Shown here piece by piece: positions 9,059 through 46,530 of a stretch of DNA of 64,000 bases. The stretch is taken from sequence record PZ445488.1. One strand, given 5' to 3'. How positions within the stretch are numbered: position 1 is the stretch's first letter; each line of letters begins with the position of its first letter. The notes below the pieces were generated by a model. The model made no database searches and was not told the origin of the DNA. It was given only the letters and a program-made list of their open reading frames with translations. This DNA is from a phage. The position numbers and the translations under genes are program-made.

Positions 9059-9150
9059 AATATTCTCTTCAGTAGATTCCTAGGGCACTATTACTAAAGA
9101 CCATATAATCTATCATCTTATGGGTAATAGTGCCTCAGGCGATTCAGGAT

Positions 9151-10251
9151 TTACGCTGTGAAGATTTTATCCCACATCGCAACAACTGCATCTCGGTTAT
9201 ACTTCTTCCATACTGCTTCAGCACGTTTAACTCGAGCTTCGTATGTGTCAGTGAATTCTAATACAGCTTTTGCGTAAAGCGCAACTACTTCTTTCTTAGG
9301 AGTAGAGGAATCAATTTCTACACGCACAGTATCTGGGTCATATTCGAATGTCGCGTGCGGATAATCCTTAAAAACTAACTGAATTACAGGGACACCTTTA
9401 GAGATGGCTTCAATAGAACTATTCTCTACCGTACCCGTGTCAGGACACGTATTGATAAGTGCTTTAGCTGTTTTAAGACGTTCCATGATTTCACTGTGTG
9501 GAGCATCAATAATAACAGGATACTTAGCCGGTGGTGCCCATTTACTAGGACAGTATCCTACACCATTTTCGCCTAGTGCTTTAATCGCTTCAAGAGCAAC
9601 ATCAGTACGACGCATTTTAGTGTCATAACGTTGTGCACTAATAATCAGATCAGTCGCCGGAAGAACTTCAGGTTTATCATTCAAACAAATAACCGGATAA
9701 TCTTCGGCTTCAAACAACGGATTTGCTCGCCAATAATCATAATCAATTTTGTCAGTCAGACCTGAAGTCATATAACAATATTTGCGTTCAAATTCACGGA
9801 AGGCTTTAGTAGGAGCATAACTCTTACCACCGTTCTTATGAATTTGAATAGTCTGGTCCCAAATTTGAACAATGCCACGAGATACCGGTTCAAATGGTGT
9901 TGCCATAAAATTCTTATGAACTTTAGAGAGACCCGCGTCTTTAATTGCCTGAACGGTTAGTTTGGTCGGTTCCATAGTAACAACAAAATCGTATTCATGG
10001 ATGCCGGCTAGTTCAACAATCTTACGAGCCATAGTATAACTCATACCTAGACTGAATTTAGTCAGATGACCAACAGGATGATGATTAACCTTCCAATCAC
10101 CAAATGTGTCATTATCAAAGCCGATATAATCAATATCAGCACCGATAGAAACTAAATATTTCAACACATTTAAATGTACTGCTTCAAGACCACCTTGTAC
10201 ACGTTCTGGGTTAAATGGGACTGCGCGAGATGGGATAAACATAACTTTCAT
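9151..10251 (-). CDS. GT-B fold glycosyltransferase (GT4-like)
   Basis: 366 aa; C-terminal ENSSIEAISKGVPVI fits the GT4 E-x7-E / G-x-P-V-I donor-binding motif; N-terminal MKVMFIPS...GGLE Rossmann start. Confidence 0.6.
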   Translation of the reverse strand: MKVMFIPSRAVPFNPERVQGGLEAVHLNVLKYLVSIGADIDYIGFDNDTFGDWKVNHHPVGHLTKFSLGMSYTMARKIVELAGIHEYDFVVTMEPTKLTVQAIKDAGLSKVHKNFMATPFEPVSRGIVQIWDQTIQIHKNGGKSYAPTKAFREFERKYCYMTSGLTDKIDYDYWRANPLFEAEDYPVICLNDKPEVLPATDLIISAQRYDTKMRRTDVALEAIKALGENGVGYCPSKWAPPAKYPVIIDAPHSEIMERLKTAKALINTCPDTGTVENSSIEAISKGVPVIQLVFKDYPHATFEYDPDTVRVEIDSSTPKKEVVALYAKAVLEFTDTYEARVKRAEAVWKKYNRDAVVAMWDKIFTA

Positions 10252-10260
10252 AATTAAGCC

Positions 10261-10294
10261 TTATTAAAATTAAAATGAAGCTCCCGAAGGAGCT
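10261..10294 (-). terminator. stem-loop terminator downstream of the topoisomerase gene
   Basis: agctcc-cgaa-ggagct hairpin (10279-10294) then U-rich UCAUUUUAAUUUU on the minus-strand RNA. Confidence 0.45.
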
Positions 10295-12129
10295 TAGGAC
10301 ATCCATTCTTTACGAAGTTCTGAATCATCACCCAACAACATTTCAAAGAGTTCTTTCCAATTTTCAGGAAGTTTAACTACGTCGTACACAGGGTTCTGAA
10401 TCATTTCACGATACTCTGACTTTTCAAGGGAGCCCAATCCCTTGATGTATCGAATACTATGCTTAGGCAGCGTATCTTTAACTTCTTCATACTCAGCTAC
10501 AGTATAAAACCATTTTTGAGTTTTGCCAATTTGTGCAATAATTACAGGTGTTTTAACAAAGCGAATACGTCCTTGTTCAAACAATTCAGGCCAATTACTA
10601 AAGAAAGCAAGCAAAGCAGGATAAATACTTCCAAGGCCGTCATGATCGGCATCGGTCATAATTGCAATATTACGATAGTTCGTATTCTCTGCCTTTTCAC
10701 CAAGAATAAGACCTGTGATAGCACAGATATCAAAGAGCTCTTTGTTCTTCATCATATCAGCATATGACATACCCCAGCTATTCATCACCTTACCACGTAA
10801 TGGGAATCCGCCGTGTAGTTCACGGTCACGAACATCAATGAGATAACCAATTGCCGAATCACCTTCTGTTAAGAACAATGTCGTATCTGCATCTTTACCA
10901 CATTGGTTAGCTTTAATATGCTTATGAACCTTAGCTTTAGTTGCCTTTTTAGCTGCTTTAGTTTCTGCGGCCTTTTCTGCTGCCAATTTACGAGCTAATG
11001 CTGCTTCAATTATAGGCATTAAAACTGCTTCAGAATTCAAAATATTTTTTGCCAATTTTTTGGTATCTAATTTAATATGCGTCCGAATTTCGCCATAAGG
11101 ACTTGTTAAACGCTCTTTGGTTTGGGAATCAAAACGAAGGTTCTTCATTCCACGAACGAACATTAAGAGAGTGAGACATTCCTTGATGCGCGCTTTAGTC
11201 ACGTCGATTTTATATTTGCGTTTAATAGCCGGAATTAATTCTTCGCAAATGTCGTCCATCACACATTCAATGTGATGACCGCCATTTTTGGTATGGATGT
11301 TATTAACATAAGTTAAATGACGGAAGCCATCTGGTGACCGACCAATGGCAATAGAGCATCCATCTTGTTCTTGAATGACGGTCTCTTCATCAAATTGTTT
11401 AGCAAACTTCTTAAAGTTACCTTTAATCCTTTTGCCATTAAATTTAAATTCAATACCAGGATAAACGACTGCCAATGTTTGGAGCCGGTCTATAGTAATA
11501 TCTTGGTATATTTTTTCAAATTGATTCATTTCAAAATGAGAGAAATCAGGAATAAACTCGACCTTAGTCCCGTTGTTTTTAGACGGCTTAGATTTCCAAG
11601 AAATATTATCAGCATTATTAGAACAATTAACTGTCAATTCGTTTTTACCATCTGAAGTAGTGCCAACAAAAGAGACAGAAAAAATATTTGTTAATGAAGA
11701 ACCGACACCGTTTTGTCCACCCGTAACACGTTCTTTGTCGTCACCAAAGTTGCCACCAGCTTTTGTACGTGTCCACGCCGCAACTGGTCCTGGAATTTCT
11801 TCTCCTTCAGGAGTAATAACTGTTTCTTGAGGAATACCTCGTCCATTATCTTCAACAGTCACTTTATTAGAATTTAAATCAATACTAACAGAAATTTTAT
11901 TAGCATATTTGAAATTGGTTCGAATAGCTTCATCTACCGAGTTGTCAATAATTTCATCAATTAATTTGAGAACACCTGCAACATATTTAACCTTTTTAAA
12001 TTCACCGAATAGGAAACGTTCTTGTTCTTCATTGGCAACACTTCCAATATACATGCCAGGACGCTTCAAACAATGCTCTTTATCAGATAGCATTTCAATT
12101 TTATTATCAATCATTAGATTTTCTCTCAA
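10294..12129 (-). CDS. 39: DNA topoisomerase II large subunit, GyrB-like ATPase + Toprim (single fused 39/60-type gene)
   Basis: 611 aa continuous ORF with GyrB-like ATPase N-terminus; in T4 this function is split into genes 39 and 60. Confidence 0.85.
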   Translation of the reverse strand: MRENLMIDNKIEMLSDKEHCLKRPGMYIGSVANEEQERFLFGEFKKVKYVAGVLKLIDEIIDNSVDEAIRTNFKYANKISVSIDLNSNKVTVEDNGRGIPQETVITPEGEEIPGPVAAWTRTKAGGNFGDDKERVTGGQNGVGSSLTNIFSVSFVGTTSDGKNELTVNCSNNADNISWKSKPSKNNGTKVEFIPDFSHFEMNQFEKIYQDITIDRLQTLAVVYPGIEFKFNGKRIKGNFKKFAKQFDEETVIQEQDGCSIAIGRSPDGFRHLTYVNNIHTKNGGHHIECVMDDICEELIPAIKRKYKIDVTKARIKECLTLLMFVRGMKNLRFDSQTKERLTSPYGEIRTHIKLDTKKLAKNILNSEAVLMPIIEAALARKLAAEKAAETKAAKKATKAKVHKHIKANQCGKDADTTLFLTEGDSAIGYLIDVRDRELHGGFPLRGKVMNSWGMSYADMMKNKELFDICAITGLILGEKAENTNYRNIAIMTDADHDGLGSIYPALLAFFSNWPELFEQGRIRFVKTPVIIAQIGKTQKWFYTVAEYEEVKDTLPKHSIRYIKGLGSLEKSEYREMIQNPVYDVVKLPENWKELFEMLLGDDSELRKEWMS

Positions 12130-12790
12130 ATTGCATGACTATATTTTTGTATGAACCTTCCGGAAATCCACGTTTAACGCTTTCTTTAGCAAATTTACCG
12201 ACCTTTGGTTTATCCAATTCTAACCATAATTTATATAAAGAAGATTCATATTCCCATACAGGACTTTTACGATTTTTAAGCCCACACTTTATAAGCGCTT
12301 CCTTTGTATGTTTCTTATTATAAAATGGATTGTTTTTGCCACTCATTGCTTTAGAATGTTCAGGGCGCTTAATTCCATACATCGGATTAAGATCGCCTTT
12401 CTTGATAATTGATTGTAGTTCAATAGTTTCTTCAGAGTGATTGTGTCCATAAAATGGATTTAACTCTTTTGAAACATCCATACCAAAGCACCCATCGACT
12501 GTGGCATAAGACATGTTGAAAAATTTTTCAGATTTAACCACATTATGCAATTTCTGGTAATACAACTCACAAAACGTCGCTTCTTCACGTGTATCAAATT
12601 CGCCAATAATACATGAATCAAATAAATGAGGATTATCTTTTATCTCTTTATCATAAATTTGTTTATATTTTTTCGACTTTACCGTACCATGATAGTAACT
12701 GTTTGTATGTTTATCAAGATAAGTAGACCCTATATAAAACGGTGGCAACTTATCGCCTGTGTATATTGTTAAGTATGTTATGTATTTCAT
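12107..12790 (-). CDS. GIY-YIG homing endonuclease (Seg-like) with NUMOD3 repeats
   Basis: 227 aa; YITYLTIYTGDKLPPFYIGST...YHG GIY-YIG core plus three NPxYG..HSEET-type repeats; 3' end overlaps the first 23 nt of gene 39. Confidence 0.75.
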   Translation of the reverse strand: MKYITYLTIYTGDKLPPFYIGSTYLDKHTNSYYHGTVKSKKYKQIYDKEIKDNPHLFDSCIIGEFDTREEATFCELYYQKLHNVVKSEKFFNMSYATVDGCFGMDVSKELNPFYGHNHSEETIELQSIIKKGDLNPMYGIKRPEHSKAMSGKNNPFYNKKHTKEALIKCGLKNRKSPVWEYESSLYKLWLELDKPKVGKFAKESVKRGFPEGSYKNIVMQFERKSND

Positions 12791-12824
12791 AAAGGTATTC
12801 TATCATCCGAAATCTAAAGCAAAA
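12791..12824 (-). promoter_or_regulatory. putative MotA-dependent middle promoter
   Basis: Minus strand TGCTTTA (MotA box) - 12 nt - TAGAAT; the same GCTTTA...CGGATGATAGAAT block recurs upstream of gene 47. Confidence 0.4.
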
Positions 12825-12838
12825 AGGGCCGAAGCCCT
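12811..12838 (-). terminator. stem-loop terminator
   Basis: agggc-cgaa-gccct hairpin then UUUUUGCUUU on the minus-strand RNA. Confidence 0.45.
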
Positions 12839-13260
12839 TATTTAAATTTAATTTTCTGAAGTGCATCAATTGCAGCCAGACGCCCTTGTTCACTTTTAAC
12901 TGTAATGACCACATCACCTGATACGATCACCGAACCATCAACAAATTCTATAGAGCCTTTTTTGAAATCAACTGACGTAGGTTCCGGAACTTCTTCAAAG
13001 AATTTAAATTCTGCACCATAAAGCAGAATATCACCTTGCATACTATGAATAGTTCGGCCATAATCGCCTACGGCTTCTACAGCAATAACCGAAACGCCGT
13101 AACCAATCATCTCTTCCACAATAAAATCTTTGGACAATAAAGTAGTATGCAGATTAGTATTAAGACGTTTACCAGTCGTATTAAGAATTCTCAAGAAATT
13201 ATCTTCTTGTCCTTTGATAATACGATATTTCTTACCAACTTCAAAACCTTTAAAAGCCAT
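12838..13260 (-). CDS. hypothetical protein (140 aa)
   Basis: Track ORF, operon strand. Confidence 0.45.
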   Translation of the reverse strand: MAFKGFEVGKKYRIIKGQEDNFLRILNTTGKRLNTNLHTTLLSKDFIVEEMIGYGVSVIAVEAVGDYGRTIHSMQGDILLYGAEFKFFEEVPEPTSVDFKKGSIEFVDGSVIVSGDVVITVKSEQGRLAAIDALQKIKFK

Positions 13261-15155: not shown

Positions 15156-15641
15156 TTAAGCTTTACGAGGAGACACATAGCGAGTGATTTCAGATTCTTT
15201 AACAACTCTGAAGTCACCTAAGAATATGATATTGTATAACTTTTCACCATCTTCAACCCATTGGTCACTAATGAAGCCGCACATAGTATCAGTTTTGCTT
15301 GGATAACCGTATTCATCGATGAAGTCAAATTCTTTATCAGTCTGGAATTCAACGCCTTTGCAAAGGGCCCATTTGAACTGTACATTATGCTCTGTGGATT
15401 CAACTTTTTCTCTTGAAGCAAAAGCACTACTCACAGGCGTTTCCAAGAACTTTGCACGAACATAAGCAAATTTGGTTTCCTGTGTCCCAAAACTAGGAAT
15501 AATACGAACTTTTACCTCAGAATCTTCATCTTTAACGCCTTCTTTAAGTTGAATACTTACAACTTCGACCAATTTTCCTGCGGCTTTAGAACGAGATTTG
15601 TTAGATACGCGAACGATTTCACCAATAATACCAAGATTCAT
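15156..15641 (-). CDS. paralog family protein B (about 162 aa from internal Met)
   Basis: Track ORF 15156-15704 trimmed to MNLGIIGEIV...; shares SRSKAAGKLVEV and GFISDQWVEDGEKLYNIIF with neighbours. Confidence 0.5.
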   Translation of the reverse strand: MNLGIIGEIVRVSNKSRSKAAGKLVEVVSIQLKEGVKDEDSEVKVRIIPSFGTQETKFAYVRAKFLETPVSSAFASREKVESTEHNVQFKWALCKGVEFQTDKEFDFIDEYGYPSKTDTMCGFISDQWVEDGEKLYNIIFLGDFRVVKESEITRYVSPRKA

Positions 15642-15703
15642 AATTTCTCTCTCTTTGTTTAAATTGAATTCATTATACTCCATCCATCCTTGGATATACA
15701 ACA

Positions 15704-16198
15704 TTAATTAAGGATATTAACCACAGCACTACGTGGAACTACACTAAAATCACCTGCATGAACAACGTTCAGAAGTTCAACACCGTCTTCAATCCACTGG
15801 TCAGTTACCCATCCATTTACTGGACCTGCGAACGGGCGTCGAATTGAAACATATTTACACAGCAAATCAGTAGGCTCAATAGGCTTAATCAGAGTACCGT
15901 ACATACAAGCGATATCCATATCAATACAGATGTCTTTAACGGGTTCTACTTCTTCAATCAACAGTTCAAAGTCTGTGCTTGGAAGGGCGGTAGTAGAAAT
16001 TGTACCATATGAATTTTTAATTTCTAAGAATAACCAAGGGCCTTCAGCTTGTTTGATGAAGTTAACAATAGTGAAACTATTGCCTTGAGTGGCACCTAAA
16101 ATTTCACAAAACTTTTCGTAAGCTCGCACTGAAGCACTGTACCAGTTGATTTGTTTTTCGTCTTTCAGGATGTAAGTAGCCGTAGTATTGATATTCAT
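15704..16198 (-). CDS. paralog family protein C (164 aa)
   Basis: C-terminal GWVTDQWIEDGVELLNVV motif. Confidence 0.45.
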   Translation of the reverse strand: MNINTTATYILKDEKQINWYSASVRAYEKFCEILGATQGNSFTIVNFIKQAEGPWLFLEIKNSYGTISTTALPSTDFELLIEEVEPVKDICIDMDIACMYGTLIKPIEPTDLLCKYVSIRRPFAGPVNGWVTDQWIEDGVELLNVVHAGDFSVVPRSAVVNILN

Positions 16199-46497: not shown

Positions 46498-46530
46498 TAA
46501 TTCATTCTATCATCCGTTTATAAAGCAAAA
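46498..46530 (-). promoter_or_regulatory. putative MotA-dependent middle promoter for 47/46
   Basis: Minus strand TGCTTTA - 12 nt - TAGAAT, 22 nt upstream of the gene 47 ATG with GAGGAAA RBS. Confidence 0.5.

Follow-up and report, generated by a model that had tools for sequence, protein, structure and literature searches.

A putative free-standing endonuclease gene upstream of gene 39

The window analysed here is a 64,000-nt stretch of phage DNA (sequence record PZ445488.1) that belongs to a T4-like phage of the genus Mosigvirus, CEV1/HX01 type. Next to gene 39, which encodes the large subunit of topoisomerase II, it carries an open reading frame (ORF) for a putative GIY-YIG homing endonuclease, and this gene, its family and its relation to gene 39 are the subject of this study. 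An earlier note on this DNA had placed the ORF at 12107-12790, and we reproduced these coordinates exactly, on the minus strand and with a product of 227 amino acids. The ORF stands alone between a 39.1-like gene and gene 39 and is part of neither an intron nor an intein. The features on which the argument turns are the following.

12107-12790, minus strand: putative homing endonuclease ORF, 227 residues (ATG at 12790-12788, TGA at 12109-12107; ORF call and sequence)
12491-12790, minus strand: GIY-YIG nuclease domain, about residues 1-100, with the residues ITY6 ... Y19IG ... E75 ... N92
12281-12466, minus strand: linker with three NUMOD3 repeats, residues 109-170 (Pfam PF07460, E = 4.8e-11, three stretches)
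12110-12268, minus strand: predicted C-terminal helical, helix-turn-helix-like DNA-binding domain, residues 175-227
12115-12791, minus strand: insert relative to endonuclease-free Mosigviruses, 677 nt, in place of the 17-nt gene 39 leader CATAACGAGGAGACAAC (alignment and junctions against Mizar)
11010-12114, minus strand: foreign, putatively co-converted tract covering the first 1105 nt of gene 39; identity to endonuclease-free Mosigviruses 66-81%, about 72% overall (identity profile and informative sites)

To define the insert, the window was aligned with the endonuclease-free phage Mizar. The two are about 98% identical for kilobases on either side; identity breaks at 12791/12792, just past the -10 box of the gene 39 promoter, and homology picks up again at the gene 39 ATG. 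Comparison with relatives lacking the insert, which the earlier note had proposed, in this way defined both the inserted segment and the leader site that it occupies. In the endonuclease-free relatives examined this 17-nt leader holds the Shine-Dalgarno sequence of gene 39, and these relatives differ from the window by the insert and the adjoining tract only. Over the 3 kb around the ORF, identity is 100% with Escherichia phage CEV1, for which there is a partial record, and 97% with HX01, G2285, JM10 and AV109-118. When a 3-kb query spanning the gene was used, 9 of 453 matching phage records covered at least 80% of it, in addition to the partial CEV1 record; the records ranked next covered 74% in two pieces and have no endonuclease gene. 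Full-length copies with at least 95% amino acid identity are present in ten records, which represent nine phages. Orthologues with 65-77% amino acid identity occupy the same gene 39 locus in at least seven genera (Mosig-, Dhaka-, Jiaoda-, Teguna-, Karam- and Bragavirus, and Providencia phages) and always adjoin gene 39. The earlier note held that conservation of the ORF at this position in all relatives would speak against a mobile gene; endonuclease-free alleles are in fact the large majority. Sporadic presence, with relatives that lack the gene at this site, was likewise seen in Dhakavirus and Jiaodavirus. Separately, KPN6 (our locus L012, 2023-2388) carries an unrelated 121-residue ORF, PHROG 7749, at the position of Mexia's endonuclease, so that the Jiaodavirus site holds alternative cargo and is not simply empty.

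Gene 39 itself is divergent on the side that faces the endonuclease gene. Past the boundary at 11010, identity to Mizar jumps back from the low values of the tract to 97-100%. A similar divergent tract covers the first ~1130 nt of gene 39 in Dhakavirus (Bp7 compared with QL01) and the first ~620 nt in Jiaodavirus (Mexia compared with KPN6), and in all three genera the flanks are otherwise 97-100% identical. Inside the tract, gp39 groups by endonuclease status (85% amino acid identity between the window and Bp7, 71% between the window and Mizar), whereas beyond it gp39 groups by genus (98% versus 80%). All gene 39 matches with at least 95% identity come from endonuclease carriers, the next best match being 83%. 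We also looked for an endonuclease-free phage with the window's own type of gene 39: none was found in Mosigvirus, and the one such case, FB, is in Dhakavirus. The earlier note had called the site a likely recombination hotspot, and the sharply bounded foreign tract adjoining the gene, together with a like signature that appears independently in Dhakavirus and Jiaodavirus, bears that out. This combination of insert and tract is the footprint that would be expected of a homing endonuclease that cuts inside its neighbour. Since the same one-sided foreign tract is found in two other genera, homing with co-conversion is well supported, and the comparative evidence for it is unusually clean.

A second divergent patch lies elsewhere in the window, at ~15300-15600 within the ORF at 15156-15704 (MotB-like region). 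It is 65-75% identical to Mizar between flanks of 95-99%, and no nuclease gene adjoins it.

A probable SegA-like GIY-YIG endonuclease

To assign the protein to a family, we collected 120 homologues and aligned 36 of them; residue conservation was counted over 121 sequences. An AlphaFold2 model of the protein had a pLDDT of 89.3. Its N-terminal 100 residues form a three-stranded sheet flanked by helices, the beta-beta-alpha-alpha-beta-alpha core of GIY-YIG nucleases, and the best structural matches in the PDB (Foldseek) were the catalytic domain of I-TevI (probability 0.97) and the GIY-YIG domain of UvrC. When the family profile was aligned with T4 SegA (hhalign), the two matched with 94.9% probability (E = 4.2e-8) over 175 columns that span both domains, and T4 SegA itself passes the Pfam GIY-YIG model. 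The sequence motif reads K-Y-I-T-Y6 ... F-Y19-I-G-S, its two tyrosines lying on strands 1 and 2. Y6 is found in all 117 sequences without a gap at this position, Y19 in all 121, and G21 in 120 of 121; further along, E75 is invariant (121/121) and N92 nearly so (120/121). E75 and N92 fall opposite E75 and N90 of I-TevI in an alignment that is weak (hhalign with a single I-TevI sequence, probability 7.7%, E = 0.0045) and was used for the Glu/Asn register only. The earlier note had regarded missing catalytic residues as grounds for rejecting the endonuclease call; the Tyr, Tyr, Glu and Asn are all present and conserved on alignment. The family profile also matches the DNA-binding region of I-TevI (1i3j), which corresponds to the linker with the NUMOD3 repeats, and the C-terminal 50 residues are predicted to fold into a four-helix, homeodomain-like module. 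The layout, an N-terminal GIY-YIG nuclease followed by three NUMOD3 repeats and a C-terminal helical domain, is that of the I-TevI/SegA type. The description as Seg-like GIY-YIG/NUMOD3 given in the earlier note is thus borne out by the three repeats in Pfam and by the SegA alignment, with PF01541 (GIY-YIG) remaining silent.

Some results count against this assignment. No invariant counterpart was found for the canonical GIY-YIG arginine (R27 in I-TevI): of the 121 sequences, 84 have K at position 27, 20 have R and 12 have N, and this best candidate (K or R in 104 of 121) lies 8 residues past the YIG tyrosine, compared with 10. T4 SegA, an active enzyme, likewise has no obvious arginine at the aligned position. 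PF01541 did not match the protein even at E <= 1, and it was absent from the precomputed domains of the 120 homologues; a paralogue whose nuclease domain is 65-69% identical reaches 21.4 bits against a cut-off of 22.6. As T4 SegF, an accepted member of the family, also has no Pfam match, the failure of PF01541 says little. The NCBIfam model TIGR01453 (group I intron endonucleases) stayed below threshold as well, at 21 bits against a cut-off of 56. In direct searches, phmmer of the protein against PDB sequences returned nothing, and the sole match of the family profile against the PDB was the I-TevI DNA-binding segment (E = 0.072).

Public annotation offers a different name. The orthologues in RefSeq NC_018855, NC_019500, NC_028820, NC_055727 and NC_055740 are uniformly called 'HNH endonuclease', the product name recurs in others, and PHROGs placed residues 1-123 in PHROG 10820, whose description agrees with it. 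Pfam and NCBIfam scans of the protein, however, found no HNH family, the modelled fold and its top structural matches are those of GIY-YIG nucleases, the family profile is homologous to the Pfam-confirmed GIY-YIG protein SegA, and several GenBank submitters already use 'GIY-YIG' for orthologues (TG1, Mexia, Nispero, KMI12). We give an HNH enzyme practically no chance. Because of the GIY-YIG fold and the relationship to SegA, we conclude that the RefSeq label on the orthologues is wrong and the submitters' 'GIY-YIG homing endonuclease' right.

The ratio of non-synonymous to synonymous substitution rates (dN/dS) is 0.13-0.23 within and between genera and is low across the whole ORF, the nuclease domain included. 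By these codon comparisons, the endonuclease ORF is intact and under purifying selection. In the AV118 orthologue (our locus L006, 2608-3291) we noted a frameshift within the first ~40 codons; the copy is annotated as a 408-nt remnant, and its tblastn coverage needs two pieces. Either this endonuclease gene is decaying or its sequence contains an error.

Gene order and expression signals

Every gene of the locus is carried by the minus strand: cef, a goF-like gene, the 39.2 zinc-ribbon gene, the ORF at the 39.1 position, the endonuclease ORF and gene 39. In the direction of transcription, the remaining features are as follows.

12838-13260, minus strand: 39.1-position ORF, 140 residues
12839-12824, minus strand: intrinsic terminator of the upstream gene, a UUCG-loop hairpin AAGGGCTTCGGCCCTT followed by a T-run
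12797-12823, minus strand: predicted resident T4-type middle promoter of gene 39, with the Mot box TTTGCTTTA at 12823-12815, a 12-nt spacer and the -10 box TAGAAT at 12802-12797 (sequence; pattern enrichment)
12122-12127, minus strand: GAGAGA, the likely Shine-Dalgarno sequence of gene 39, within the 3' end of the endonuclease ORF and 7 nt ahead of the gene 39 ATG (sequence)
12107-12114, minus strand: 8-nt overlap of the gene 39 start codon with the endonuclease stop codon, ATGATTGA (sequence)
10294-12114, minus strand: gene 39, encoding the large subunit of topoisomerase II in its unsplit (fused 39+60) form, 606 residues; presumed target gene

Gene 39 was taken to start at the ATG at 12114, since this yields the conserved N-terminus MI(D/K)N..., has GAGAGA at a 7-nt spacing and is the annotated start in HX01 and G2285. 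The overlap with the endonuclease ORF is then 8 nt; the 23 nt given in the earlier note would apply only to an upstream in-frame TTG at 12129. An overlap of the 8-nt type is also found in HX01, G2285, Bp7, IME281 and TG1. Of six other orthologues whose 3' ends reach across the ATG of gene 39, five have kept GAGAG or GAAAG, and TG1 has GTAAGG.

Terminator and promoter together make up a stem-loop/Mot-box unit ('PmSL'), of which hairpin, T-run and Mot box occupy 12815-12839. Such a unit is present in Mizar, QL01, FB, Bp7, IME281 and Biddle, and promoter and terminator are identical in the endonuclease-free Mizar. T4 has the same hairpin/Mot-box/-10 layout upstream of its own gene 39, followed by a 27-nt leader. 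The middle-promoter motif and terminator that the earlier note saw ahead of the ORF are real, but they do not form part of the mobile gene: judged by this sharing with Mizar and the layout in T4, they are resident gene 39 signals. The window contains 12 matches to the pattern TGCTTYA-N11-13-TANNNT, where 1.9 would be expected, and none of 100 shuffled sequences reached 12. A sigma-70 promoter scan of the region gave 4 matches, compared with 7.4 in shuffled sequence, and was set aside except for the terminator. Another site resembling a Mot-box promoter lies at 46504-46527 on the minus strand (TGCTTTATAAACGGATGATAGAAT); it has the 13-nt CGGATGATAGAAT in common with the gene 39 promoter at 12797-12809.

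The endonuclease ATG begins 6 nt past the -10 box, at the predicted +1, and no Shine-Dalgarno sequence precedes it. The same is true of 6 of 8 lineages, in which the -10 hexamer stands 6-7 nt ahead of the ATG and a Shine-Dalgarno sequence is lacking. The absence of this sequence and the position of the AUG at the predicted +1 suggest that the endonuclease may be made at a low level from a leaderless message; if so, the low expression that is typical of seg/mob genes in T4 would here be reached by a new route. Speaking against this, IME281 and PM2 have a normal Shine-Dalgarno sequence, so that leaderless expression would not be universal. An RNA hairpin masking the endonuclease start, as in I-TevI and segB, was considered and rejected: just a 5-bp AU stem could be formed, with a fold z-score of -1.45. 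A weak terminator-like hairpin, GGCGATAAGTTGCC followed by ACCGTTTTAT, lies at 12744-12757 on the minus strand, ~35 nt into the endonuclease ORF. It could attenuate read-through to gene 39 or be due to chance.

Probable homing with co-conversion and its alternatives

Taken together, these comparisons make it probable that the ORF is a SegA-like free-standing GIY-YIG homing endonuclease that has spread by homing with co-conversion of the 5' part of gene 39. When a carrier and an endonuclease-free relative infect the same cell, the enzyme would cut the naive gene 39 allele within its first ~600 nt; the break would be resected and then repaired from the endonuclease-carrying genome, and repair would copy the endonuclease gene and, along with it, a 5' stretch of the donor's gene 39 that varies in length. 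Because this stretch is copied along, the new host would, as we propose, gain a cleavage-resistant allele. The observed junctions place the upstream crossover in the conserved stem-loop/Mot-box/-10 unit and the downstream crossover inside gene 39, and the cassette stands exactly where the mRNA leader of gene 39 would be, with the resident middle promoter on one side and the ATG of gene 39 on the other. Gene 39 would now be read from a bicistronic transcript through the endonuclease gene, by way of the GAGAGA embedded in the endonuclease ORF. The earlier note had recognised the arrangement of a mobile endonuclease beside a conserved gene, and the free-standing Seg-type gene does abut gene 39 and is sporadic; cleavage of gene 39 is what we infer from the tract.

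Several observations weigh against this reading, and most of them would fit ordinary modular recombination at promoter/stem-loop units (PeSL/PmSL shuffling) and within gene 39, with the endonuclease as a passenger that is perhaps inactive today or was never a gene 39 cutter. The upstream junction lies in the conserved stem-loop/Mot-box/-10 unit, and it has been proposed that T4-like genomes exchange segments at stem-loop/promoter units (PMC4122927). The five compared Mosigvirus carriers share a single tract boundary, suggesting one acquisition followed by descent within the genus, not repeated homing. A donor of the tract was sought and is not in our collection, where the best match outside Mosigvirus is 79% (Bp7/FB). 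The foreign tracts of different genera have diverged from each other about as much as the genera have, and it is possible that they are long-standing allelic classes reshuffled by ordinary recombination. Phage FB (vB_EcoM_FB; our locus L011, 2361-2440) is without the endonuclease and has kept the ancestral promoter, leader and Shine-Dalgarno sequence, and yet its gene 39 is of the endonuclease-linked type (97-100% identical to Bp7), with the switch falling exactly at the ATG; this could be gene loss or conversion without acquisition of the gene, and plain recombination also fits. The divergent patch at ~15300-15600, nearby and free of any nuclease gene, points the same way. What modular shuffling does not readily account for is that three genera show a one-sided tract which always starts at the endonuclease gene and extends into gene 39, though to different end points, that the orthologue is always at one locus, and that the ORF is under purifying selection with its catalytic residues intact; moreover, co-conversion without the gene, or its later loss, explains FB equally well. 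We consider a passenger endonuclease carried by modular recombination unlikely.

It is also conceivable that the gene has become a domesticated or dual-function factor, kept mainly because gene 39 expression depends on it, and maybe acting as a promoter regulator or as a weapon against coinfecting phage, and that it is not actively spreading. Through the insert, gene 39 lost its original leader and Shine-Dalgarno sequence and gained a new sequence of the latter kind, so that a clean deletion would be costly; I-TevI is also an autorepressor, and promoters embedded in seg genes favour retention (PMC2988022). In AV118, furthermore, a frameshift in the nuclease domain is tolerated and the 3' part is intact. 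Conservation of the catalytic residues across 121 homologues and a low dN/dS that extends over the nuclease domain argue the other way, however, and there was no sign of an operator-like copy of the target site. Domestication would also complement homing and does not exclude it; as the main account of the gene we find it quite improbable.

Within the homing reading, we can sketch a more specific version, which we offer tentatively and regard as possible but somewhat doubtful in its entirety. The element would be a 'leader-replacement' homing element: a cassette made of the ORF and nothing else, inserted past the +1 of the middle promoter and ahead of the gene 39 AUG, with a leaderless endonuclease mRNA and the stem-loop/Mot-box unit as its upstream homology arm. 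Endonuclease drive would then maintain, across genera, the separation of two old classes of alleles for the gp39 ATPase domain (MIDNKIEM...RPGMYIGSV and MIKNEIKV...RSGMYIGSS).

As to the target site, fixed differences between the gene 39 allele classes cluster at nt 7-19, 54-57, 136-140 and 400-402, which are candidates only since three sequences were compared with four. The gp39 of Klebsiella phage Biddle_MM4 has a hybrid N-terminus, reading IKNEIQILSDV as in endonuclease-free alleles and then RPSMYIGSV as in endonuclease-linked ones, and the first 30 nt are therefore disfavoured as the target. Our best guess for the candidate target region is around nt 50-80 of gene 39. In the same phage (our locus L018, ~975-1060) gene 39 apparently starts with GTG, overlapping the endonuclease stop codon (GTGATTAA), and the record annotates a later ATG.

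Comparison with known systems

The closest relative among the T4 elements with which we compared it in detail is SegA. The two proteins are homologous over the nuclease, NUMOD3 and C-terminal domains, and the C-terminal part of SegA was found by plain BLASTP at 27% identity. They are similar in size (221 residues in SegA), and both genes are free-standing beside a gene of DNA metabolism. SegA differs in its neighbours, lying between uvsX and beta-gt, and in passing the Pfam GIY-YIG model, which the window protein does not. It is also distant, T4 not being among the matches listed in a tblastn search with the nuclease domain. According to an account available via PMC2988022, SegA activity has been demonstrated experimentally; the window protein is known from its sequence.

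The behaviour that we propose is that of SegF and SegG, two T4 enzymes linked to marker exclusion. They are encoded by free-standing GIY-YIG genes beside a conserved, essential gene (56 and 32, respectively) and cut inside the neighbour at a distance, with co-conversion of the intervening sequence (PMC2988022). For these two, homing with co-conversion has been shown experimentally; for T4 seg/mob genes in general, co-conversion from cut sites at a distance has been described, as have weak signals for translation (PMC2988022). As with segF and gene 56, the window ORF overlaps the neighbouring gene. The window gene differs in lying upstream of its presumed target, in place of the target's leader, and hhalign detected no sequence relationship between SegF and the window protein. 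I-TevI differs in being encoded by an intron, that of T4 td, and in the zinc finger of its linker, which the window protein lacks; Arg27 of I-TevI has no invariant equivalent in the window family, and sequence similarity to I-TevI is below family thresholds.

MobA of T4 is a selfish HNH nuclease that acts on the same topoisomerase gene and brings protective sequence with it (10.1101/2022.08.31.505936). It differs from the window protein in its family, in its site (codons ~466-473 and not the 5' end) and in that it splits gene 39/60 and brings a translational bypass, whereas gene 39 of the window is unsplit. This bioRxiv paper on gene 39/60 covers MobA only. Our literature searches returned no paper describing an endonuclease upstream of gene 39.

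The gene is thus a new, uncharacterised SegA-like GIY-YIG member at a locus that is not listed among the T4 elements. It is an element of a known kind that behaves as expected, and only the leaderless arrangement and the leader-replacement geometry go beyond the textbook. It adds to the T4 homing-endonuclease repertoire a SegA-like member with a defined empty site and would join MobA as a second selfish nuclease that acts on the topoisomerase gene. Carriers and endonuclease-free phages form three natural pairs whose exchange tracts have been mapped, which should ease marker-exclusion and target-site experiments, and the spacing from promoter to AUG suggests leaderless expression that can be tested in a T4-like phage. 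The tracts account for the fact that, in Mosigvirus, Dhakavirus and Jiaodavirus, the first 0.6-1.1 kb of gene 39 give phylogenies at odds with the remainder of the genome. Finally, a widespread 'HNH endonuclease' annotation is corrected.

Related nuclease genes at other positions

At other loci the same nuclease domain is combined with different C-terminal domains; many Tequatroviruses, for instance, have such a gene immediately upstream of gene 47. In TadeuszReichstein (our locus L004, 2495-3118) we found such a paralogue of 207 residues, with a nuclease domain 65-69% identical to that of the window and a different C-terminus. The 207-residue paralogue lies between 47.1 and gene 47 in many Tequatroviruses, where it overlaps the gene 47 start by 23 nt; T4 is without it.

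Phages AV109, AV114, AV115, AV116 and AV118 have a second endonuclease gene directly downstream of gene 39 (our loci L008 of AV114, 1-792, and L006 of AV118, 442-792). At the position downstream of gene 39, the window has a 369-residue ORF at ~9150-10260. The AV109 protein P0031 (267 residues) is a homologue of the window protein, 39% identical over 95%, and these AV genomes show a second tblastn match; the gene after gene 39 may be this homologue. With a nuclease gene on either side of gene 39, these phages have the arrangement described as an 'HEG island' in PMC10448857.

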